Source: Candidatus Omnitrophota bacterium (lineage in GTDB: Bacteria; Omnitrophota; Gorgyraeia; Gygaellales; Profunditerraquicolaceae). Taken from it: a stretch of 64,000 bases of DNA. A model generated the notes under the pieces. That model was not told the origin of the DNA, did not search any database, and saw only the letters and a list, made by a program, of their open reading frames with translations. The position numbers and the translations under genes are program-made. Location of the stretch: contig JAUSED010000003.1 of the NCBI GenBank assembly GCA_030650425.1, positions 199,903 to 263,902 of the forward strand, read 5' to 3'. Below, in pieces: positions 36,058 to 50,677 of this stretch (position 1 is the stretch's first letter; each line of letters begins with the position of its first letter).

Positions 36058-38205
36058 ATGATGGTTGTGAAAATAAAAAAAGAAAAGAAGCCAATGAAAA
36101 AGGTAGTCAAATCCGTAACTAAAAAAACAGCCAAGCCGGTTAAAAAGCCGGCTAAAACTGTGGTGAAACCGGTTAAGAAAATCGCGGTCAAGGCCAAGAA
36201 GCCCGCGGCTATTCATCCTGCTCCGGTAATTCCGCCTAAGCCGATTCAGCCGCAACCTAAACCGGTAGTCTATCCTCCGGCTAAGCCTGCCCAACTCCAA
36301 GCCAAACCAATAGTCCATCCTCCGAAACAAGAACTCCTACCGGTCAAATTACATCCTAAGCCCCCCGTACATGTACATGCGCTAAAACCAGAACTAAGAG
36401 AAGAGATAAAACCCGAAGTTAAGGCTGTTCCCGCTGCCGTAGTCGTTGAACTTAAAGAATTAGAGCTGCAACTTCCGATTACCGTTAAGGATTTGGCGAT
36501 TAAATTGCAGGAAAAGCCTTCGATTATTATTAAGTATCTGATGGATGCCAAGATAATGGCCGGGATAAATCAGGTTTTGGATGAGCCGGTAGCGGTGAAG
36601 ATCTGCGAGAAATACCGCTGCAAAATCAAGAAGGCGCTTAATCAGGAAGAAATAGCCTTGAGCAGTCATCAGGCCAAAGACGATCCCAAAAATTTGAAGC
36701 CGCGTTCTCCGATCGTTACTTTTATGGGCCATGTTGATCACGGGAAGACTTCGCTCTTGGACGCGATAAGAAAAACGAAAGTTGCTGAAGGTGAACATGG
36801 CGGTATTACCCAGCATATCGGCGCCTACAGGGTAGTTTTACCGAGCGGAGAAATTACTTTTCTGGATACGCCGGGACACGAGGCTTTTACAGCCATGCGT
36901 TCGCGCGGAGCAAGTATCACCGATATTGTTGTTTTGGTGGTGGCAGCGGATGACGGAATAATGCCGCAGACTCAGGAAGCTATCGACCATGCCCGGGCAG
37001 CCGGCGTTTCGATCATTGTAGCCGTGAATAAAATTGACAAAGCAGGCGCGGATATAGATATGGTAAAAAAGCAATTGGCTAAACTTGATTTAAACCCCGA
37101 AGATTGGGGAGGTAAGACGATCACCGTACCTGTCTCGGCAAAAACAGGGGAGGGTATCGATAATTTATTGGAGATGATTATTTTGGAAGCGCAGATGCTG
37201 GAGTTAAAAGCCAATCCTAACCGCCTTGCCCGCGGCATAGTGATTGAAGCCCAGATGTCTAAAGGCCGCGGGCCTGTATCCACCTTGCTAGTCCAAAACG
37301 GAACTTTACATTTAAACGCGAATATTATTGTGGGAAATTTTTACGGTAAGATCAGGGCGATGTTTAACGACCATGGCCAGGCAGTGACCAGCGCTACTCC
37401 TTCCGTGCCTGTCGAGGTGTTAGGTATTTCAGGCGTTCCAGCTGCCGGAGAGCAATTTTTTGCTATCGCCGACGAAAAAGAGGCTAAAGAACTGGCCGCG
37501 GGCCGCCTGGAAAAAGAAAAGCAACAACAGGTAAAAACCGTTAAACACATCACCCTCGAAGATCTGCACGCCCAGATTTTGGCAGGTAAAATCAAGGATT
37601 TGAAACTGATTATCAAAGCAGATGTGCAGGGCTCACTTGAGGCTATCAAAGAGACCTTAAGTAAATTAAATGTCTCGGAGATAAAACTAGAGTTCATACA
37701 CTCCGGCGTGGGTAATATTAATAATTCCGACGTCATCCTGGCGATGGCCTCTGATGCTCTTATCCTTGGATTTAATGTGGAGATGGACGACTTGGCCCGT
37801 GAATTGGTCAACAAAGAAGGGGTTGATGTTAGAACTTATAACATTATCTATGAATTAGCCAATGATGTGAAAGCGGCTATCGAAGGAATGCTCACCCCTA
37901 AGCTAAAGAAAACCTTATTGGGGAGAGCTGAAATCAGAAAGGTCTTTAAATTATCGCGCTCAGGGATCATTGCCGGTTGTTTTGTGGTAAAAGGTAAATT
38001 TACCCGTAATTGCGTAGTGGACTTGGTGAGGAACGGGCAGGTGATTTTTGAAGGTAAGCTTTCTTCATTAAAGCGTTTTAAAGACGATGTACGCGAAGTA
38101 GCCGAAGGTTTTGAGTGCGGGATGAGTATAGCGGGGTTTGACCAGGTGATGGAAGGCGATCTGATTGAAGGGTATGAGATAGAGAAGATAGCAAGGAAGT
38201 TGTAA
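36058..38205 (+). CDS. infB: translation initiation factor IF-2
   Basis: Pro/Lys-rich N-terminus; [12 protein letters not shown]; DTPGHEAF; NKIDK. Confidence 0.9.
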
Positions 38206-41504: not shown

Positions 41505-42624
41505 CAAACTATCCATTATAACATTGACTTGTCTGCTTGTGATTAGTATCTTTAGCCCTACTTATGCCTCCGAGACCGTGCGTATAGCGATTATCCAAGA
41601 CACTTCATCCCTAAGCCTTAAGATTAAAGGTTTCTTCCAAATCAGGGATTTAGAAAAGCATAAAATCATCTACCACGCTAAAAGCATCGAGACAACCGTA
41701 ACCACCTATAAAAGCGGGATTGTTATCGGAGGGATTAAACCGGCTTCAGATAAGCTCTTGATTGAGTCAGATGACCCTGAGGCCTTCCTGATTAATGGCA
41801 AGTCCTTCCGGGGGAATATCCAACTAATCAAGAAGAGCAATAATAAACTATTGGTGATTAATTGTATTGAGCTTGAGGATTATATTAAGGGAATTCTGTA
41901 TCATGAATCTTCGCATTATTGGCCGATGGAGGCTTTAAAGGCGCAGGCGATTATCTCGCGTACTTACGCGCTTTATCAAATGCAGGAAAATAGGCGTAAA
42001 GATTTTGATCTGACCAGCGACATTTATTCTCAGGTTTATGGAGGAGAAGCTTCTGAGCGTTTTCGCACGAACAAGGCAGTGGATGAGACGCAAGGTAAAG
42101 CTCTCTTTTTTAAGGGAAAGATCATCCCGGCTTATTTTCACGCCACCTGCGGCGGGCATACGGAAGACGCGGCTCTCCTTTGGAATATCGATTTAGCGCC
42201 TTTAAAAGGAGTAGTCTGCCCTTATTGCAAAGAATCACCGCATTTTAACTGGCATTATGATTTTGGGCTAAAGGATATAGAAAAGAAGTTATCCGCTAAA
42301 GGATTTAAGCTAAAAAATATAACTAATCTAGGGATAGAAGGAAAAGATGCTTCGGGAAGGATTACTAATCTCATCATTAATTCAGAGCAGGGAGAAACTA
42401 AAGTCTCGGCTAAAGATTTTCGCGAGACGATCGGCCCAAATCTTATCCGGAGCACTAATTTTTCCGTGGCCATAGAGGGAAAAGACGCGGTTTTTGAAGG
42501 GATTGGCTGGGGACATGGCGTGGGGCTTTGCCAGTGGGGCGCCTATTTTATGGCTAAGGATGGCAAGAGCGCCGAAGAGATCTTAAAATATTACTATCCG
42601 GGGACAAATGTTAAAACTTTCTAA
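41497..42624 (+). CDS. SpoIID/LytB-domain protein (cell-wall amidase enhancer family)
   Basis: Signal peptide; YFHATCGGHTEDA motif. Confidence 0.7.
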   Translation: MNNKLSIITLTCLLVISIFSPTYASETVRIAIIQDTSSLSLKIKGFFQIRDLEKHKIIYHAKSIETTVTTYKSGIVIGGIKPASDKLLIESDDPEAFLINGKSFRGNIQLIKKSNNKLLVINCIELEDYIKGILYHESSHYWPMEALKAQAIISRTYALYQMQENRRKDFDLTSDIYSQVYGGEASERFRTNKAVDETQGKALFFKGKIIPAYFHATCGGHTEDAALLWNIDLAPLKGVVCPYCKESPHFNWHYDFGLKDIEKKLSAKGFKLKNITNLGIEGKDASGRITNLIINSEQGETKVSAKDFRETIGPNLIRSTNFSVAIEGKDAVFEGIGWGHGVGLCQWGAYFMAKDGKSAEEILKYYYPGTNVKTF

Positions 42625-43600
42625 TTTCGATTATCCCTTACCTAAAGAATTAATCGCCCAATATCCGCTTAAGGAGAGGGAGAGCGCGCGGCTGCTGGTG
42701 GTTAATCGGAGCGATAATTCAATCGAGCATAAAATATTTAAAGATCTAACGGGTTACCTTAAACAAAGCGATCTTTTAGTTCTAAATGATACCAAGGTGC
42801 TTACCTGCCGCTTGATGGGCCATAAGGCTACTGGCGGAAAAGTCGAGATTTTATTAACGAAACGTAAGAGCGGCTCTACTTTTGACGCGCTGATCCAGCC
42901 TAGCCGTACCAAAATCGGCGAAAAGATTTTTTTCGGTAAAAATGAAATCGCGGGAGTGGTCACTAACCGCAAAGAGATTACTTTTCAGCCAAAAGATGCT
43001 GATAGAATCTATGGGTTTGGAGAGGTTCCGCTTCCGCCTTATATAAAAAGAGAGCCTGAAGAGCTGGATAAAGAATATTATCAGACGGTTTATGCGGATA
43101 GGGAAGGCGCTATCGCTTCTCCGACCGCGGGCCTGCATTTTACCAAGGATTTATTAAAGCAAATAGAAGCGCAAGGGGTAAATATCGCGCATTTAACTTT
43201 GCATGTCGGCTTGGGCACATTTAAGCCGGTCATCACTGATGATATTACTGAGCATCAGATGGAGCCGGAGACTTTTCAGGTTTCCAAAAGCGCGCAGGAG
43301 AAGATAGAAGCAGCGCGCAAGAACAAATCGCGGATCATTGCCGTAGGGACAACGTCGCTGAGGGCATTAGAGGCTTATGCCGCAGGCGCCAAAGAAGGCC
43401 AGACTAATCTGTTTATTTACCCGGGTTATAAATTTAAGCTGGTCAATTGCCTGCTGACGAATTTCCATCTGCCCAAGACCACGCTTTTTATGCTCGTCTG
43501 CGCCTTTGGCGGAGAGAAATTAATCAAACAAGCGTATCAGGAAGCACTGGATAAGAAATACCGATTTTACAGCTACGGCGACGCAATGTTGATAATTTAA
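42608..43600 (+). CDS. queA: S-adenosylmethionine:tRNA ribosyltransferase-isomerase
   Basis: LSNFDYPLPKELIAQYPLKERESARLLVV; C-terminal NFHLPKTTLFMLV. Confidence 0.9.
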   Translation: MLKLSNFDYPLPKELIAQYPLKERESARLLVVNRSDNSIEHKIFKDLTGYLKQSDLLVLNDTKVLTCRLMGHKATGGKVEILLTKRKSGSTFDALIQPSRTKIGEKIFFGKNEIAGVVTNRKEITFQPKDADRIYGFGEVPLPPYIKREPEELDKEYYQTVYADREGAIASPTAGLHFTKDLLKQIEAQGVNIAHLTLHVGLGTFKPVITDDITEHQMEPETFQVSKSAQEKIEAARKNKSRIIAVGTTSLRALEAYAAGAKEGQTNLFIYPGYKFKLVNCLLTNFHLPKTTLFMLVCAFGGEKLIKQAYQEALDKKYRFYSYGDAMLII

Positions 43601-43608
43601 CACACCGA

Positions 43609-43663
43609 AAGGGACAGTTTCCGCAGATGGCTATTGCGAAGCTTGGACAGGAAACTGTCCCTT
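43609..43663. repeat. 14-bp perfect inverted repeat AAGGGACAGTTTCC...GGAAACTGTCCCTT enclosing a 27-nt loop, at the left edge of the accessory island
   Basis: Seen directly, 9 nt after the queA stop. Confidence 0.5.
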
Positions 43664-43867
43664 GGGGTCATTTGCTCTAATTGCTCTTTCATGCACCTGT
43701 CAATTTTCTCGCTCAGCACGATTTTTTAACGCCAATGATCTTTCAATGCTCAAGCTCCATTGGCTAAAATCGTGATTCGCTCGAAACTTGCCAGGTTCAT
43801 TTATAAGAATAGGGATCTAGTTTCTCTTTCCAAAAGTAAAGTAAGCAGGTCTAAGAAAGCAGGGCAA

Positions 43868-44206
43868 ATGGTGAAATATATGCCAGATCCAAATACTATA
43901 ATGGCAATGACATCAGTTTTTATGCTTGTTATTGTAGGAATCCAGGTATGGATTTCTATAAAACAAAACAAATTATTAGAAATGCAGTCGAGAATATCCA
44001 AAGCTTCAACTGTAAGTGCTATTTTTAATTTGATACAGGAATCAGATAAGATGTTATTAGATAATATAACTGTAATAGAAAAATATAGAGATGAAAAGGG
44101 TATGCCTAAAGAATTAGCTTTGGCAATGGTAACCGAATTTAAGAAATGCCGTGATGAGAGCGTAAAGAAACACAAAGAGATGCTTGAGGTGTTAGGAGAA
44201 AAATAG
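43868..44206 (+). CDS. hypothetical small membrane-anchored protein
   Basis: Start chosen at ATG 43868 (MVKYMPDPNTIMAMTSVFMLVIVGIQVWI, one TM) rather than the track's 43760. AT-rich, Lys-rich. Confidence 0.35.
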   Translation: MVKYMPDPNTIMAMTSVFMLVIVGIQVWISIKQNKLLEMQSRISKASTVSAIFNLIQESDKMLLDNITVIEKYRDEKGMPKELALAMVTEFKKCRDESVKKHKEMLEVLGEK

Positions 44207-44248
44207 AAGACATGCCTATGGGGCTTTATGCAAGCACTTTTTTGGCAC

Positions 44249-44279
44249 AAAATAGTAGATTATTATAATCTACTATTTT
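44249..44279 (+). terminator. AT-rich near-perfect palindrome AAAATAGTAGATTAT|TATAATCTACTATTTT after the 44206 stop
   Basis: Seen directly; followed by a T/A-rich tract. Confidence 0.35.
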
Positions 44280-44325
44280 ATTAACAAGTTAACGCGGTAA
44301 GACTTTATAAGCGGAAGAAATAACT

Positions 44326-45036
44326 ATGCAATGTGCACTTTGTCAAAATACAAAAAAACTTTGTAAATCCCATATAATTCCCGAATTCTTTTACAAAGAG
44401 TTATATGATAAAAAACATCGTTTTAAAGGAGTATATTCAATCTGGGGGAAAATCGTATTTCACTTTAAGGGATTTCGCGAACGTCTACTCTGTGAAGACT
44501 GTGAAAAAAAATTAAGTAGTTACGAAAAATACCTGAGGGACGTTCTTCTTGAACAATATCCTAAAATTATGGAACTAAAAGTCGGAGATAAGTTATATTT
44601 TAACGTCAATTATAAAAAAATCAGGCTTTGTTATCTTTCAATTCTTTGGCGTATGAGTATTGCTACTAAACGATTTTTTAAGAATTTTTCAATTCCTGAA
44701 TATGAGGGAAAACTTAAAGATTTACTTAATAGGGATGATCCCGGTAATCCTAATGAGTTTGGTTACATTGCTATAGTCCCCTTAATGAATAATTCTTTTA
44801 AAAGAGCTTGGTTTATTGATCCTCATCTGGGAAAAATGAATGGTGATGATATTTGCTTCGTTATGTTTGGGGGTATTTTATATATTTTCTTTATTACGTT
44901 TACTAATAATCCAAGGGCTGCAGAAGCATTCATACAAAGAGAAAATAAGTGGTTGATAACCGCCGTTGATGTAAAAGATACCCTTTTAGATAAATATATT
45001 AGAAATGCTCAAAAAATAATAAAAAAGTCTCAATGA
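44326..45036 (+). CDS. hypothetical protein with N-terminal Cys-rich HNH-like motif (candidate nuclease)
   Basis: C-x2-C-x8-SHIIPE ... LLCEDCEKKL resembles the zinc-ribbon/HNH arrangement (CxxC...HH(V/I)IP...LCxxCH). The remaining ~170 aa have no recognisable family. Very AT-rich. Confidence 0.45.
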   Translation: MQCALCQNTKKLCKSHIIPEFFYKELYDKKHRFKGVYSIWGKIVFHFKGFRERLLCEDCEKKLSSYEKYLRDVLLEQYPKIMELKVGDKLYFNVNYKKIRLCYLSILWRMSIATKRFFKNFSIPEYEGKLKDLLNRDDPGNPNEFGYIAIVPLMNNSFKRAWFIDPHLGKMNGDDICFVMFGGILYIFFITFTNNPRAAEAFIQRENKWLITAVDVKDTLLDKYIRNAQKIIKKSQ

Positions 45037-45075
45037 TGGGCACATTTTGAGCACAAGCTGTTCTTGAAGCATTCT

Positions 45076-45107
45076 AGGGACACGACATTTAATTCCTCGG
45101 AGAAAAG
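45076..45107 (+). repeat. intron-less paralog of the group II intron homing site (AGGGACA|CGACATTTAATTCCTCGGAGAAAAG)
   Basis: Matches the joined exons of the occupied site (…GGGGACA [intron] CGATACTTAATTCCTCGGAGAAAAG) over ~40 nt. Confidence 0.55.
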
Positions 45108-45166
45108 ATAATTAAGTAATGTGTCCCCGGAAATTCTGTGTATAGTAACCTTTACTTTCTTAACCT

Positions 45167-45649
45167 ATGTATTTCAATACTACGCTAGGAGCTAAAATAA
45201 ACAATAAGAAACCAACTAGTTTAGCTGGATTATTTTTTATTGGACTAATTTTTATAGCTGTATTTTTTATAGGAGGGAATGCTTCATTATTAACTCAAAA
45301 TATAGCTAACTGGCCTAAAGCTAAAGCCGAAGTTATTTCCGTTGAACCTGAAATCGTTTGTGAAACACCAGAAAGATCTAGCGCTTGCTACACTATATTT
45401 TTTATTAAATATTCATACAACGTAAATGGAAAAGAATACATTAACCAAATGAAACAAGAATATGTAACTAATTATATTCCTGGAAAAACATTTGATGTAC
45501 TTTATAAACAAGACAATCCTCAGCTTGTTTTTAAAAAGGATGACCTTCCCGGTAAATTCAAACTTTATCTATCCTTAATAATTGGATTGATTATCGTCAT
45601 CCCTATTATGTTTTTTTGGAAACAGAAACGAAACAGACGTGTTCCCTAA
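45167..45649 (+). CDS. DUF3592-like two-TM membrane protein
   Basis: TM1, then ...WPKAKAEVISVE...YSYNVNGKEYIN...GKTFDVLYKQDNPQ..., then TM2. This is the DUF3592 topology and motif pattern. Confidence 0.5.
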   Translation: MYFNTTLGAKINNKKPTSLAGLFFIGLIFIAVFFIGGNASLLTQNIANWPKAKAEVISVEPEIVCETPERSSACYTIFFIKYSYNVNGKEYINQMKQEYVTNYIPGKTFDVLYKQDNPQLVFKKDDLPGKFKLYLSLIIGLIIVIPIMFFWKQKRNRRVP

Positions 45650-45822
45650 CACTTAGCAATTTCAATAGTTGTAAATAAAATCTCCGCTCTTTGATAAATT
45701 AAAACTGTATTCCTTCCAGAGGGAATACATCTGCCAAATCTTCCGGCGCTAAAACCGCATCAGGCCTACGATGGAGACGGCGGAAGGGTAAAGAAGACAA
45801 CCGGCTCACCCGCTAACCCGCT

Positions 45823-45905
45823 GAAGAATTCCGTGAAGAATTCCGGGCAGAAGAATTCCCAATTCCGGGCAATTCCGCAATTCCGGCAATTCCGCAATTC
45901 AGGGG
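45823..45905. repeat. degenerate tandem array (~8 units) of AATTCCG/GAAGAATTCCG immediately 5' of the group II intron
   Basis: gaagaattccgt gaagaattccggg cagaagaattccc aattccgggc aattccgc aattccggc aattccgc aattcagggg. Confidence 0.7.
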
Positions 45906-46402
45906 ACAGTGCGCCAAGAAAGCTAATATGAACAGGCCGTAATAAACGGCACGGTCAAAGACTAACCATCAGGCCGTTACTATAGCTCTGCGTACAGCGA
46001 GGTAATAAGCTGTATGAAGCCAGAGTGAAGGAGATTGTCAACCGTAACGCAAGTGAAGGCAGTAAGTCCCGAAATGAATACGTCGCAGTGGGCTAATGGT
46101 TTGTCCCCTATGAAGCCAGCAGTATCACGCGCGTAAAGGTGAGTGCGTGATGTCCTGCCGGGATTGTAAGCCACAGTGGGCAATCAATATGTTTGTATTG
46201 GAACTTGTGAGAACCAACGTGTTTCCCATAAGTCGTCAACGAGCTTCTAAAGAAGCAAGGAGATGATAAGGCACGTTGGTAGTCGGACTAACTCATAGTA
46301 CTCAATGATATTGGGAAAGCCAATAACAAGGGGAAGGGGTTAGCAGTTAAAGTTGCACGAGGCTAAGGAAACATTGAGCGGACTCAAAGTCTGTGGAAAG
46401 CA

Positions 46403-47701
46403 ATGGAAACAAAATTAGACTCACTAAGTCAGTATGCCGCAAAAGAACCTCAGCGGAAATTCGTTAACATAATGTATCAGGTTAACGAAAGTTCTTTGAA
46501 GGCGAACTTCTATCTGCTCGGCAGGAAACGTGCAGTAGGAGTGGATGGCGTAGGTTGGCAGGAATATGGAGAAGGATTAGATGCCAACATCGATAACCTC
46601 TTGGAACGGATGAAGAGAATGGGCTATCGGCCGCAACCTGTAAGACGGGTGTATATACCTAAAGGCAGGAATGATAAAAGGCCTTTGGGTATCCCCACGG
46701 TAGAAGATAAGGTTGCGCAGAAGACAATGAGCCGGATTATGGAAGCGGTTTATGAACAAGACTTCTATGAATTCTCATACGGATTCCGTCCGGGAAAGAG
46801 TTGTCATCAGGCGCTTAAGCGAGTCGGCGAAATTATCAACTTTAAGCCAATCAACCATATTATCGAAGCGGACATCAAAGGGTTCTTCGATAACGTAGGA
46901 CACGAAAAGCTAATGGAATTGGTAAGAAGGAGAATTACCGATAAGAAATTCCTGCGTTATATCGTGCGCTTCCTGAAAGCCGGATATATTGAATCCGGTT
47001 TGTTAAAGGAAGCAAAACAAGGCACTCCGCAGGGAGGAAACTTAAGCCCGTTATTGGCTAACATATTTCTGCATTATGTGCTGGATGAATGGTTTGAAAA
47101 GGAGTTGAAACCGACTCTTGTAGGCCAGTGTTATTTGGTGAGGTATTGCGACGATTTTGTTATCTTGACGCAATATCAGCAAGAGGCAAAGACGGTAATG
47201 ACCCGGCTGCAAGAGAGATTCGAGGCATATGGCCTTGAACTCAACACGGAGAAATCAGGAGTAATAAGTTTTGGCCGCTATGAGCGGGAAAATGCCGAAA
47301 AACAGCTAAGGCGGGCAAATACTTTTGATTTCTTAGGGTTTACGCATTACTGCGCTTTGACACGTAAAGGCAAATTCAAGGTTAGTCGAAGGACAAGTGC
47401 TGAAAGATTCCGTAAGAGCCTCAGAGAAATATATCTCTGGCTCAAGGCTTTCAAGAATACGATTAGCATTAAGGAGTTATGGACACAGCTTGTAAGTAAA
47501 TTAAGAGGGCATTATCAATATTATGGTGTGAGTGAAAATCTTAGGAGGTTGCAAGAATTTTACCACCACATAGAAGATATGGCCTTTAAATTGCTCAACC
47601 GGCGGTGCGATAAGAAGTCCTTCAACTGGCGGGGATTCTGCAAATACTTGCAACGGTTTCCATTACCCAAGCCGCACATAGTATGTAACTTTTACGCATA
47701 A
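46403..47701 (+). CDS. group II intron-encoded reverse transcriptase/maturase (RT domains 0-7 + X; no En domain evident)
   Basis: RPLGIPTVEDKVAQ (RT1), FRPGKSCHQA (RT2), QGTPQGGNLSPLLANIFL (RT4), YCDDFVIL (RT5 YxDD), maturase X tail. Confidence 0.9.
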   Translation: METKLDSLSQYAAKEPQRKFVNIMYQVNESSLKANFYLLGRKRAVGVDGVGWQEYGEGLDANIDNLLERMKRMGYRPQPVRRVYIPKGRNDKRPLGIPTVEDKVAQKTMSRIMEAVYEQDFYEFSYGFRPGKSCHQALKRVGEIINFKPINHIIEADIKGFFDNVGHEKLMELVRRRITDKKFLRYIVRFLKAGYIESGLLKEAKQGTPQGGNLSPLLANIFLHYVLDEWFEKELKPTLVGQCYLVRYCDDFVILTQYQQEAKTVMTRLQERFEAYGLELNTEKSGVISFGRYERENAEKQLRRANTFDFLGFTHYCALTRKGKFKVSRRTSAERFRKSLREIYLWLKAFKNTISIKELWTQLVSKLRGHYQYYGVSENLRRLQEFYHHIEDMAFKLLNRRCDKKSFNWRGFCKYLQRFPLPKPHIVCNFYA

Positions 47702-47727
47702 CCGAATACTGATGGAAACTTACTGAA

Positions 47728-47760
47728 GAGCCGTATGCGGGAAATCCGCAAGTACGGTTC
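47728..47760 (+). ncRNA. group II intron catalytic domain V
   Basis: Canonical 33-34-nt hairpin with AGC and GAAA tetraloop. Confidence 0.8.
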
Positions 47761-47883
47761 TGTGAGGGGCTCTGAAATACGGGCCTACTCGACCGATACT
47801 TAATTCCTCGGAGAAAAGGAACGAACGGGGGGCGTCCCAAAAAGGGACACCCTTGGTTTAGCTGATGCGATGAAGAATCGTAA

Positions 47884-48300
47884 CTAATCCCTATAAAATC
47901 CTATTCTGCGCTTGGGTTTTTCCGGGGGAGCCATAAGCTGGCGGATGGCTTCAAATATCTCTTTGATCGTCTGGTTGTGTTCGGCATATCTCTTCTCAAG
48001 TGATTCAATCTTTACAGCTAATTCTTTATGCGTTAAAAGAATTAGCCTTAGTTTAGTAAAGGCCCGCATAATTAATATATTTACTTGAATGTCCCTTTCA
48101 CTATTTAGCACACTTGAGAGCATAGCCACTCCTTGTTCGGTAAAGACATAAGGTAGATATTTAATGTTTTGGCCTTGTTTCAAGGACGCAAAATGCGACC
48201 TTGAATTTAAGATCACATTTTGTGATCTTAAAGAATCCAATTCTTCATTTGTAATTTGAAACATGAAATCATGGTGAAAAGCGGTATTAGTTCTTTCATT
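47884..48300 (-). pseudogene. 5'-truncated ORF6N-domain gene remnant
   Basis: FQITNEELDSLRSQNV...YLPYVFTEQGVAMLSSVLNSERDIQVNILIMRAF matches the ORF6N core. Homology (..FHHDFMFQ..) continues upstream of the ATG to an in-frame stop at 48301-48303. The usual first ~40 aa of the domain are absent. Confidence 0.6.
48210..48228. repeat. palindrome P1 AGATCACA-TTT-TGTGATCT (TCACA-N3-TGTGA core), inside the ORF6N remnant
   Basis: Seen directly; encodes RSQNVIL in the remnant. Confidence 0.7.
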
Positions 48301-48379
48301 TTATTCTCGTCTCTACTATAATAGACGTAAGATAAGGTAAAATCTAACAAAGAATTATTTAAATAACAAGGCAAATGCA

Positions 48380-48398
48380 ATGTTTGAACTAATTCAGC
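48380..48398 (+). repeat. orphan copy of tgt 5' end (ATGTTTGAACTAATTCAGC); 18/19 identical to tgt start at 49476-49494
   Basis: Direct comparison of the two sites. Confidence 0.8.
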
Positions 48399-48403
48399 CT
48401 AAT

Positions 48404-48430
48404 CTTGAAGTCACAAATTGTGACTTCAAG
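48404..48430. promoter_or_regulatory. palindrome P2 CTTGAAGTCACA-AAT-TGTGACTTCAAG (12-bp arms)
   Basis: Seen directly, in the intergenic region upstream of the 48531 gene. Confidence 0.5.
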
Positions 48431-48468
48431 ATTTAAAGTGAAAAATAGACGCTGAACGTATTGTTCAA

Positions 48469-48487
48469 GATCGCAATTTGTGATCTC
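48469..48487. promoter_or_regulatory. palindrome P3 AGATCGCA-ATT-TGTGATCT; near-copy of P1 including flanks (TTCAAGATC...ATCTCAAAG)
   Basis: Seen directly, ~45 nt upstream of the GTG start at 48531. Confidence 0.5.
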
Positions 48488-48530
48488 AAAGGTTATCGGA
48501 AACGCAGACACTACTCAAAGGGAGGGAAAG

Positions 48531-49001
48531 GTGAAAAAGTATATTATTTTTCTCTTATTTTTCCTGGCTTTGAATATTAACGTTTATTGCGGCCAGGAAA
48601 GCAGGATTGAGTTGACTGATGGCAGCGTGCTTAACGGAGAAGTAACTTCTTTAGCCAGCGGCACTTATACTATCAACACCGCTTCTATGGGCGTAATAAA
48701 AATTGACGCGGCAAAGGTCGCTAAAATTGAATCAGTGAAATCCTCCGCGCTTAGTTCAGCAATTAATCTTACACCGGCACAAATTAACAGCTATAAGCAA
48801 AAAATTATGGGTAATCCGGATGCAGCCGCCGCAATCAAAAGTCTATCTGCTAATCCTCAGATTAAGGCGTTAGCGGAAGATCCGGAAATTGTCAATGCCG
48901 CCAAGTCCGGGAATATCCAAGAATTGTTCAGTAACAAAAAGTTTACGGATGTTTTAGAAAGCCCTGAGATACAAGAAACAGCTAAGAAAATTAAGCAATA
49001 G
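48531..49001 (+). CDS. hypothetical secreted protein with NP/DP (STI1-like) repeats
   Basis: GTG start with ggaggg RBS; signal peptide KKYIIFLLFFLALNINVYCG; repeats NPDAAAAIK / NPQIKALAEDPEIVNAAK / SPEIQETAKK. Confidence 0.5.
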   Translation: MKKYIIFLLFFLALNINVYCGQESRIELTDGSVLNGEVTSLASGTYTINTASMGVIKIDAAKVAKIESVKSSALSSAINLTPAQINSYKQKIMGNPDAAAAIKSLSANPQIKALAEDPEIVNAAKSGNIQELFSNKKFTDVLESPEIQETAKKIKQ

Positions 49002-49015
49002 CAAGGAGAGATGTT

Positions 49016-49480
49016 ATGGGTAAGAAGATAAAGCGGATAATCGCTAAAGAAGGGTTGATCATTATCGCCATCGCGGCGATAATGTATATTTTTAAGACAT
49101 TCGTGCCCTCTTTCACGTTCCCTTATCCGAAAGTGAAATTAGCATTCCAGGATGGAACCTCGAATATTATAGAGATCTATCCGGAGATGACTACCTCTGA
49201 GCTCGCGGGTAAGATCGGCCCAAGCGGGTTGATCAAGAAATATCATTGCCCAACCCCTGAACTTATCTCCAAGCGGATCGATAAATTCATCCAGGAGAAC
49301 AAAAAGACTTCAGCGCTGGTTGATAAAAAGTGTGTGAATGAAAAACAGCTCTATCTGTATAGGGCATACTTTAATTTCCTGTTTCAACCTTTGCCTTTTA
49401 GGACATTAACTATCTATCTTTTCTTATTACTTATCCGTTTCATTGGCTGGGCGGTCAGGGTATTGAATAAAAATGTTTGA
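49016..49480 (+). CDS. hypothetical membrane protein (N- and C-terminal TM helices)
   Basis: RBS aggagag; stop overlaps the tgt ATG (ATGTTTGA). Confidence 0.45.
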   Translation: MGKKIKRIIAKEGLIIIAIAAIMYIFKTFVPSFTFPYPKVKLAFQDGTSNIIEIYPEMTTSELAGKIGPSGLIKKYHCPTPELISKRIDKFIQENKKTSALVDKKCVNEKQLYLYRAYFNFLFQPLPFRTLTIYLFLLLIRFIGWAVRVLNKNV

Positions 49481-50615
49481 ATTAATTCAGCAAGATAAAA
49501 ATAGCGGGGCGAGGCTGGGAAAGCTGACTACGGAGCATGGGGTAATCAATACGCCTTGTTTTATGCCTGTTGGGACGCACGCGACCATCAAAGGGCTTTA
49601 TCCTAAGGATGTGGAAGAGGCAGGCGCGGAAATTATGCTCTCTAATACCTATCATTTGTTCTTACGGCCGGGAATGGAGATTATCCGTAAAGCCAAGGGA
49701 TTACACAACTTTATTGCGTGGAAAAAGCCGATTCTTACGGATAGCGGTGGTTATCAGGTGTTTAGTTTAGCGCTTTTAAGGAAGCTAAGCGATAAAGGCG
49801 TGGAGTTTCAGTCGCATATCGATGGATTTAAACATTTCCTGACTCCTGAAGATGTAATCGACATACAACAGGATTTAGGCTCGGATATTATGATGCCGCT
49901 GGATGAATGTGTGCATTACCCCTGCGGAAAAGATCAGGCGGAAGTAGCGATGAAGCGCACGATCAATTGGGCTAAACGTTCGCATAAGCATCTAGAAGAG
50001 CATAAAAAGCATGGTCCAACCAAGAAGCAGCTCCTTTTTGGTATTGTGCAGGGCGCGACCTACGAAGACCTGCGTACTGAATGCGCCAAGGAATTAACCG
50101 ATATTGATTTCGATGGCTTTAGCATTGGCGGAGTTTCTGTTGGCGAACCCAGCGATTTAATCTATAATATATTATCTTTTAGCGCGAAATTACTTCCTCA
50201 GCATAAGCCGCGTTATGCTATGGGCATAGGTTATCCGCCGGATATCATCGAGGCAGTGGAGCGAGGGATTGATATGTTTGATTGTGTGGTTCCTACCCGT
50301 TACGGCAGGAATGGAACCGCTTTTACCAGTACCGGAAAGATAATTATCAGGAACGCTCCCTTTGCCGAAGATTTTAGGGCACTCGATGCTAAATGCGGCT
50401 GCTATACCTGTAAGACTTTCAGCCGGGCATACCTGCGCCATTTGTTTAACGCGCAGGAGATGCTCGGTTTGACCTTACTTTCTTTACACAATGTTTATTT
50501 CTTTTTGGATTTGGCGCGTAAGATCAGAGAGGCAATTCGGCAGGATAGGTTTAGTGACTTCAAAAAAGAATTCTTGAGTCAGTATAATAGTTTGATAGGG
50601 GACACTTTCCTTTAA
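49473..50615 (+). CDS. tgt: queuine tRNA-ribosyltransferase
   Basis: HGVINTPCFMPVGTHATIKGL; LTDSGGYQVFSL; zinc site CGCYTCKTFSRAYLRHL. Confidence 0.9.
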   Translation: MFELIQQDKNSGARLGKLTTEHGVINTPCFMPVGTHATIKGLYPKDVEEAGAEIMLSNTYHLFLRPGMEIIRKAKGLHNFIAWKKPILTDSGGYQVFSLALLRKLSDKGVEFQSHIDGFKHFLTPEDVIDIQQDLGSDIMMPLDECVHYPCGKDQAEVAMKRTINWAKRSHKHLEEHKKHGPTKKQLLFGIVQGATYEDLRTECAKELTDIDFDGFSIGGVSVGEPSDLIYNILSFSAKLLPQHKPRYAMGIGYPPDIIEAVERGIDMFDCVVPTRYGRNGTAFTSTGKIIIRNAPFAEDFRALDAKCGCYTCKTFSRAYLRHLFNAQEMLGLTLLSLHNVYFFLDLARKIREAIRQDRFSDFKKEFLSQYNSLIGDTFL

Positions 50616-50677
50616 AGTATTTCCGATAGCTTTGATGGAAAGTGTCCCCTAATAGTGAGGTTTGGATGGATTTAACT

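Follow-up and report, generated by a model that had tools for sequence, protein, structure and literature searches.

Among described group II introns, those closest to the element reported here are class E introns of the S.me.I4 type, found in Sinorhizobium meliloti on pRmeGR4b and on many Sinorhizobium/Ensifer plasmids, which measure ~1.9 kb and encode a 435 aa protein with reverse transcriptase (RT) and X domains and no endonuclease (En) domain. A class IIE intron from Clostridium beijerinckii, Cl.be.I2, has been studied in vitro (Nagy et al. 2013, PMC3753933), whilst the class D introns RmInt1 and RmInt2 of S. meliloti, likewise En-less, are the experimental model of lagging-strand-primed retrohoming. 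Class C introns (B.h.I1 and the E.r. IIC intron, PDB 7uim) also encode an En-less RT-X maturase, of ~420–430 aa. Here we describe a group II intron of 1885 nt at positions 45909-47793 (+) of a 64,000 nt stretch of a Candidatus Omnitrophota genome (assembly GCA_030650425.1, contig JAUSED010000003.1, positions 199,903 to 263,902; this whole stretch is referred to as the window). The element is real and complete, appears to be functional and belongs to class E, with an En-less intron-encoded protein (IEP); it adds one more example to a known kind of element. The window intron shares with the S.me.I4 type the En-less RT-X protein (432 vs. 435 aa, 39.8% identity over the full length), the RNA model RF02005, a protein clade with 100% bootstrap support and the intron length, but its host belongs to the Omnitrophota rather than the Alphaproteobacteria, the proteins differ by ~60% and the two have unrelated target sites.

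The original prediction had placed a complete group II intron at 45909-47793, and these coordinates proved to be exact. The conserved ends of group II introns, GUGYG...AY, are present as GUGCG at 45909-45913, as had been claimed, and as AC at 47792-47793; between 5′ GUGCG and CUCGAC 3′ domains I to VI are all present, and when the open-reading frame (ORF) is taken out, a 586 nt ribozyme is left (494 nt on the 5′ side of the ATG and 92 nt on the 3′ side of the stop codon). Two Rfam families, RF02005 (group-II-D1D4-6; 45942-46173, 98.5 bits, threshold 49) and RF00029 (domains V and VI, clan CL00102; 47726-47793, 61.8 bits, threshold 40), were the only matches in the whole 64 kb in a gathering-threshold scan. 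The boundaries were set by comparison with independent copies (L081, L082, L083, L086, L174-L176, L001 and L182-L191), which occupy at least eight sequence contexts: similarity begins at the G of GTGCG and ends right after CTCGAC, and its loss at both ends in independent copies gives the intron length of 1885 nt. Several short contigs of relatives stop within 1–2 nt of the intron ends, as is expected of a repeated element in assemblies.

A protein identical to the IEP is already in NCBI, on a 359 kb contig of a Candidatus Omnitrophota metagenome-assembled genome, where it is annotated as a group II intron RT/maturase. Proteins sharing 67–96% identity with it were found on other contigs, the flanks of which were compared; these close copies came from exact-protein look-ups, and a metagenome scan with the IEP recovered only relatives of ≤55% identity and no further close copies. 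In L183-L191 an identical intron joins one 5′ flank to two 3′ flanks (CAGAACTCC... and TGAAATACG...), which suggests that several genomic copies, collapsed or chimerically assembled, are present in those metagenomes. The close copy in L082 (933-3721) lies between an IS481-like helix-turn-helix ORF and another ORF and may sit inside an insertion sequence (IS), and a 71%-identical copy in L176-L181 (L176 1-6323) lies between same-strand ORFs of >890 and >1300 aa.

A structure could be modelled for the entire ribozyme, as the original prediction had proposed as a check. The consensus for domains I to III (DI-DIII), built from an alignment of 20 relatives over the stretch from the 5′ splice site to the ATG, comprises 115 base pairs, 93 of which show compensatory double changes; 95.9% of cells were paired, against 34–38% when the 3′ partners were slid by 1–3 columns, and none of 500 column shuffles matched the observed values. 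The window copy retains 114 of the 115 consensus pairs. Domain I (45914-46208, on the + strand as are all intron features) consists of stems i and ii and subdomains a, b, c and d, and its consensus structure shows compensatory changes. Its alpha sequence CUAACC (45962-45967), in the DIb terminal loop, pairs with alpha′ GGUGAG (46138-46143), which lies in the loop that caps the DId hairpin 46125-46150, a placement characteristic of classes E and F (PMC3753933), and the two covary: A-U is replaced by G-C in L001, L104, L010, L110 and L008, and switches from C-G to U-A also occur. In domain II (46213-46280) 18 pairs of helices 18–21 are changed on both sides, the following J2/3 linker AGUCGGA (46281-46287) is invariant in 20 of 20 relatives, and in domain III (46288-46343) all ten pairs of helices 22–23 show compensatory change. 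Two relatives carry insertions in ribozyme loops that are otherwise conserved, of ~50 nt in the alpha′ hairpin loop in L103 (alignment A3 columns 256-305) and of ~100 nt in domain II in L008 (columns 400-516).

Domain IV (46344-47725), which carries the ORF in its loop, is closed by a basal helix of 46344-46354 with 47717-47725 that also covaries (CAGU/ACUG to CGGU/ACCG and CAAU/AUUG; Alifold, 11 relatives). Domain V (33 nt, 47728-47760) was identified from RF00029 and from its fold, and has an AGC triad, a 2 nt bulge and a 5 nt loop, GAAAU, with a stem that covaries in relatives. It had been predicted as a textbook domain V lying 27 nt past the stop codon; the position holds, the quoted 33 nt sequence starting at 47728, the 27th base after the stop, whereas the distal helix is of 4 bp (GCGG-GAAAU-CCGC) and its 5 nt loop replaces the GNRA tetraloop. 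Every 33 nt domain V recovered by motif search among relatives has a 5 nt loop (GAAAA, GAGAG, UAAUA and others), so that this domain V is typical of its class rather than textbook. Domain VI (47763-47791), likewise matched by RF00029 and by its fold, is the hairpin that had been anticipated just before the terminal AC, and carries a bulged branch-point adenosine, A47787, the seventh base from the intron 3′ end (6 nt before the last base).

The IEP (46403-47701, +) is a 432 aa protein with an ATG start, lying inside domain IV, with RT blocks 0–7 and an X/thumb domain but no DNA-binding/endonuclease (D/En) region. It matches NCBIfam TIGR04416 (group_II_RT_mat) with 360 bits (cutoff 300) over profile positions 15-352 of 353, and Pfam RVT_1 over residues 85-314 (2.4e-38), whilst the match to the Pfam GIIM/X domain is weak (residues 340-410, 17.9 bits, below the 23-bit threshold). 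The earlier reading of this protein as RT0-7 and X without a D/En tail holds on closer inspection: a Pfam scan at E ≤ 0.1 found nothing beyond RVT_1 and GIIM, and no HNH domain, the IEP contains no CxxC pair, it stops ~35 aa past domain X in a tail conserved in relatives (...KKSFNWxGFxxYLxRFPLPKPxIVxNFY), and the 92 nt after the stop codon are entirely taken up by the 3′ strand of domain IV, domain V and domain VI. Together these features define the IEP as En-less. RT block 5 reads YCDD instead of the usual YADD; as the same motif is the norm in relatives (99 of 120, P0001-P0120), we rejected the idea that it is a disabling mutation. The ratio of nonsynonymous to synonymous substitution rates (dN/dS) was 0.08–0.10 against three relatives and, judged from these sequences, the RT/maturase is intact and under purifying selection. 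In genome annotation, the 1.9 kb is best labelled an intron, and its protein kept out of counts of defence or retron RTs.

The DId3 hairpin 46091-46117 bears in its terminal loop the exon-binding site EBS1, UGUCCCC (46102-46108), which forms 7 bp with the intron-binding site IBS1, GGGGACA (45902-45908, +), the 7 nt with which the 5′ exon ends, and EBS2, UGAAU (46075-46079), in a DId internal loop, forms 5 bp with IBS2, AUUCA (45897-45901, +). The first 10 nt of the 3′ exon are CGATACTTAA (47794-47803, +), of which the C at +1 is the presumed IBS3 and which are conserved from +1 to +10 between independent sites; the ligated exons are predicted to read AATTCAGGGGACA then CGATACTTAA (AATTCAGGGGACA|CGATACTTAA). 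At least five contiguous EBS1-IBS1 pairs abutting the splice site were found in 17 of 20 cognate intron/exon pairs, vs. 16% of non-cognate combinations. The EBS1 loop covaries with the last 5–8 nt of the 5′ exon, and the two change together in relatives (UGUCCCC/GGGGACA in the window, and UGACCC/GGGUCA, GGGACA/UGUCCC, GCAAGA/UCUUGC, AAUAGU/ACUAUU and UCAUA/UAUGA elsewhere); the EBS2 region varies with the exon too, as AUACCU with AGGUAU in L001 and AUAC with GUAU in L182.

The intron's target is sequence-specific. Three independent insertions (window, L082 and L086) have in common ~23 bp from -13 to +10, AATTC(C/A)GGGG(A/G)CA|C..TACTTAA, and a fourth, L176, occupies a site similar to this consensus. 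The conserved target is longer than the reach of EBS1 to EBS3, which suggests that the protein may contact the 3′ exon. When the window was searched with the consensus, one additional match was returned, the intron-less near-cognate site ATTTCCGGGGACA|CATTACTTAA at 45112-45134 (-), with one mismatch where 0.01 chance matches were expected. A weaker target-like site, TTCTAGGGACA|CGACATTTAA (45072-45109, +), is also empty; it and the occupied site are direct repeats, TTCCTCGGAGAAAAG included, so that an ORF for a DUF3592 membrane protein is flanked by ~38 bp direct repeats, one being this empty + copy with TTCCTCGGAGAAAAG and the other the occupied site. The two empty copies, one per strand, form an imperfect palindrome (45072-45134). 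Directly abutting the 5′ splice site lies a tandem array of AATTCCG-type, IBS2-like units (45822-45904, +; periods 8, 12 and 17), which holds 6 of the 26 occurrences of AATTCCG in the window, whilst relatives L082 and L086 hold 1–2 copies only.

Neither the empty palindrome nor the repeat array folded better than shuffled sequences (z = -1.5, -1.2 and -0.8), and a structured target was rejected. An integron attC identity for the target or palindrome was rejected as well, since the outer boxes are GGGGACAC/GTGTCCCC rather than RYYYAAC/GTTRRRY and there is no integrase. Further GGGACA...TGTCCC palindromes occur directly after queA (43604-43668) and over the tgt stop codon (50596-50651), and GGGGACAC occurs five times in the window vs. 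0.5 expected; these palindromes may be a genome-wide intergenic hairpin family supplying IBS1-like sequences.

For classification of the IEP, references were taken from Toro and Martinez-Abarca 2013 (PMC3552965), namely the pBpOF4-01 intron and E.c.I9 (class D), Ni.ha.I1 (F/g3, taken from NC_007959.1) and Sr.me.I2 (g1). The class E reference is a Sinorhizobium plasmid intron found by tblastn that is 99% identical to the copy on pRmeGR4b, which is the class E intron S.me.I4 (Toro et al. 2018, PMC5894124); we had considered the S. meliloti tblastn matches as RmInt1 (class D) but rejected this on the basis of the 435 aa ORF, the RF02005 match and the match to pRmeGR4b. In a neighbour-joining tree with S.me.I4 as the one named class E reference, and without g2 or class A, B, CL and ML references, the window IEP, its relatives and the class E reference formed a clade with 100% bootstrap support that excluded the two class D, one F/g3 and one g1 references, with class D as its neighbour. 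BLASTP gave 327 bits to the class E protein, compared to 166–176 bits to class D, 154 to Ni.ha.I1 and 146 to g1. The RNA agrees with the protein: RF02005 is matched by the window intron, the class E reference and a Cytobacillus relative, but by neither the class D references, which match RF01999, nor Ni.ha.I1, which matches RF02003. Nagy et al. 2013 (PMC3753933) describe as hallmarks of IIE and IIF introns a 5 nt domain V loop instead of a GNRA tetraloop, and an alpha′ located at the tip of the DId3 stem-loop rather than in a bulge; both the domain V pentaloop and the terminal-loop alpha′ are found in the window intron, the 586 nt ribozyme of which falls within the 450–700 nt of class E. Compared by description rather than by sequence, Cl.be.I2-type IIE introns and the window intron thus share the IIB-like fold, this size range, the 5 nt domain V loop, alpha′ at the DId hairpin tip, and both EBS1 and EBS2 next to the 5′ splice site. 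On its IEP clade, RF02005 match, domain V loop and alpha′ position, the intron is read as a member of bacterial class E (IIB-like).

A class D (RmInt1-like) intron, or one of class F and the g groups, is a very improbable alternative. Such introns are likewise En-less and of similar size (1884 nt for RmInt1), D and E are sister clades, and IIF introns also have the domain V pentaloop and terminal alpha′ loop. The bit scores, the fully supported clade with the class E reference and the separate Rfam models of the D and F/g3 RNAs speak against it. The original prediction had left room for classes that home via replication forks or into terminator-like targets, and the second of these corresponds to a class C (IIC) intron, for which the target would be not a sequence but a hairpin resembling a terminator or attC site. 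The best matches of the IEP among solved structures are all group II maturases, the top one being the IIC maturase 7uim (1.5e-45) and class C IEPs being the most similar in the RT, and the target is one arm of an imperfect palindrome (45072-45132) in a window where GGGACA...TGTCCC palindromes stand at other gene ends. The IEP scores about equally well against IIA, IIB and IIC maturases, however (137–159 bits), and class C introns have a ribozyme of ~400 nt, an EBS1 of 3–4 bp and no EBS2, and insert after terminator or attC hairpins, none of which applies to the window intron; its 586 nt ribozyme, 7 bp EBS1 and covarying EBS2 exclude class C. Moreover, the intron lies inside a palindrome arm and not after a hairpin, the occupied site lacks the second arm, folding of the empty palindrome is weak (z = -1.5), the tandem repeat directly upstream of the intron has no significant fold (z = -0.8), and the attC core sites are unmatched. 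We regard a class C intron as effectively refuted; insertion after terminator hairpins is argued against, and a homing that is sequence-specific and relies on host replication is favoured by the class E assignment, the 7 bp EBS1 and the presence of EBS2.

The intron lies in a non-coding spacer between the DUF3592 membrane-protein ORF (45167-45649, +) and a truncated ORF6N-domain ORF (47884-48264, -), the latter being the sole sizeable minus-strand ORF near the intron. This spacer is part of a ~5.9 kb insert (43601-49472) that separates queA (42608-43600) from tgt (49473-50615), has a GC content of 0.39 vs. 0.44, and holds only hypothetical ORFs, the DUF3592 ORF, the intron and the ORF6N fragment; it looks like a small accessory insert. 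An interrupted gene was rejected, as the longest frame over the ligated junction is 92 aa from stop to stop, lacks a Met and is low-complexity, and an Rfam scan of 45040-45910 that gave no match at E ≤ 1 led us to reject a second intron or the remains of an RNA in the 5′ flank. Promoter and terminator scans returned nothing above background. The intron had also been called the only clear autonomous mobile element in the window, which is correct for ORFs of ≥180 aa: Pfam scans found no transposase or integrase among the other 48, two of which were annotated by position or context rather than by Pfam (36058-38205, and tgt, read from its translation). The Pfam scans of the other large ORFs gave only housekeeping functions, among them lipopolysaccharide and isoprenoid synthesis, tRNA synthetases, ClpP, NusA, Wood-Ljungdahl enzymes and others.

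Taken together, we consider it very likely that 45909-47793 is an intact, probably still functional class E (IIB-like) group II intron that a Candidatus Omnitrophota genome carries in a non-coding spacer. By analogy with established group II intron biology, the intron would be transcribed by read-through from co-oriented upstream genes, and the IEP, translated from the precursor, would bind the intron RNA and promote lariat splicing via A47787. The lariat-IEP particle would then locate DNA by EBS1/EBS2/EBS3 pairing with AATTC(C/A)GGGG(A/G)CA|C, and perhaps by protein contacts reaching as far as +10, and reverse-splice into the target strand. Since there is no endonuclease, the primer for complementary DNA (cDNA) synthesis would be a 3′ end made by the host, the most likely candidates being newly synthesised lagging-strand DNA and primer RNA at the replication fork, as in class D RmInt1. 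RmInt1 favours the lagging-template orientation, in which it reverse-splices into single-stranded DNA at the fork and primes cDNA from primase RNA or Okazaki fragments (PMC5894124). All 49 ORFs of ≥180 aa in the window are on the + strand, the same as the intron, and GC skew is positive throughout (+0.08 to +0.21), so that the + strand is probably leading-strand sequence and the intron sense strand would be the lagging-strand template. This orientation fits, without proving, priming from nascent lagging-strand DNA of the RmInt1 kind. RmInt1 and RmInt2 also resemble the window intron in size and in sequence-specific recognition via EBS1/2/3, and RmInt2 targets inverted repeats (ISRm17), one copy of which is on the lagging-strand template, much as the target copies in the window are inverted (45112-45134 on the - strand, the occupied site on the + strand); they differ in IEP clade, in their domain I model (RF01999) and in that their targets are IS elements, the window site having no flanking transposase.

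Several points weigh against this reading. Splicing and mobility of the window copy are predicted from its sequence; class E had, according to PMC3753933, been characterised solely for in vitro splicing, priming on the lagging strand is carried over from class D, replication direction can be judged only indirectly from GC skew and gene-strand bias, and class E itself is assigned from one named reference intron together with the RNA hallmarks. In addition, the outermost DI(i) pair is broken in the window copy (C45914/U46208), the intron is present once in the 64 kb window, and both good target-like sites, 0.8 kb upstream, are empty. The single copy, the broken pair, and the vacancy of the near-perfect 45112-45134 (-) and the weaker 45072-45094 (+) are also what would be seen if the element were a structurally intact but immobile, ‘fixed’ copy of a recently mobile lineage, which at most still splices. 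We think this unlikely given that the ORF is intact with all RT blocks present, that all but one of the consensus pairs are retained, that dN/dS indicates constraint up to the recent past, and that proteins of 89–96% identity are found at other sites in other samples; the better of the empty sites, moreover, is on the opposite strand, which, going by other En-less introns, would be disfavoured.

The arrangement of these sites admits a more specific and rather doubtful reading, in which homing is directed at a palindrome family that recurs between genes of this genome (GGGGACAC...GTGTCCCC), the intron entering one arm, with the copy on the presumed lagging-strand template occupied and the inverted copy 0.8 kb away empty, and in which the AATTCCG array is a by-product of intron activity at the site. 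Such an array may have arisen by repeated abortive reverse splicing and repair, or by slippage making alternative exon-binding registers. If true, the locus would be a natural in-genome illustration of strand-biased class E homing, together with an undescribed footprint.

In the intact class E intron described here, two details alone are unusual, the inverted target that stands empty and the array of IBS2-like repeats, and outside annotation the finding is of little importance. From the Omnitrophota, a phylum for which our literature search found no paper on group II introns, it contributes a class E intron that has clear boundaries and appears functional. The 586 nt ribozyme is a possible compact En-less scaffold, and the occupied + site next to an empty inverted site, amid uniform gene orientation and GC skew, offers a possible natural test of RmInt1-type replication-strand bias, whilst the relatives, with their covarying exon-binding sites and targets, could be used to define the targeting rules of class E.

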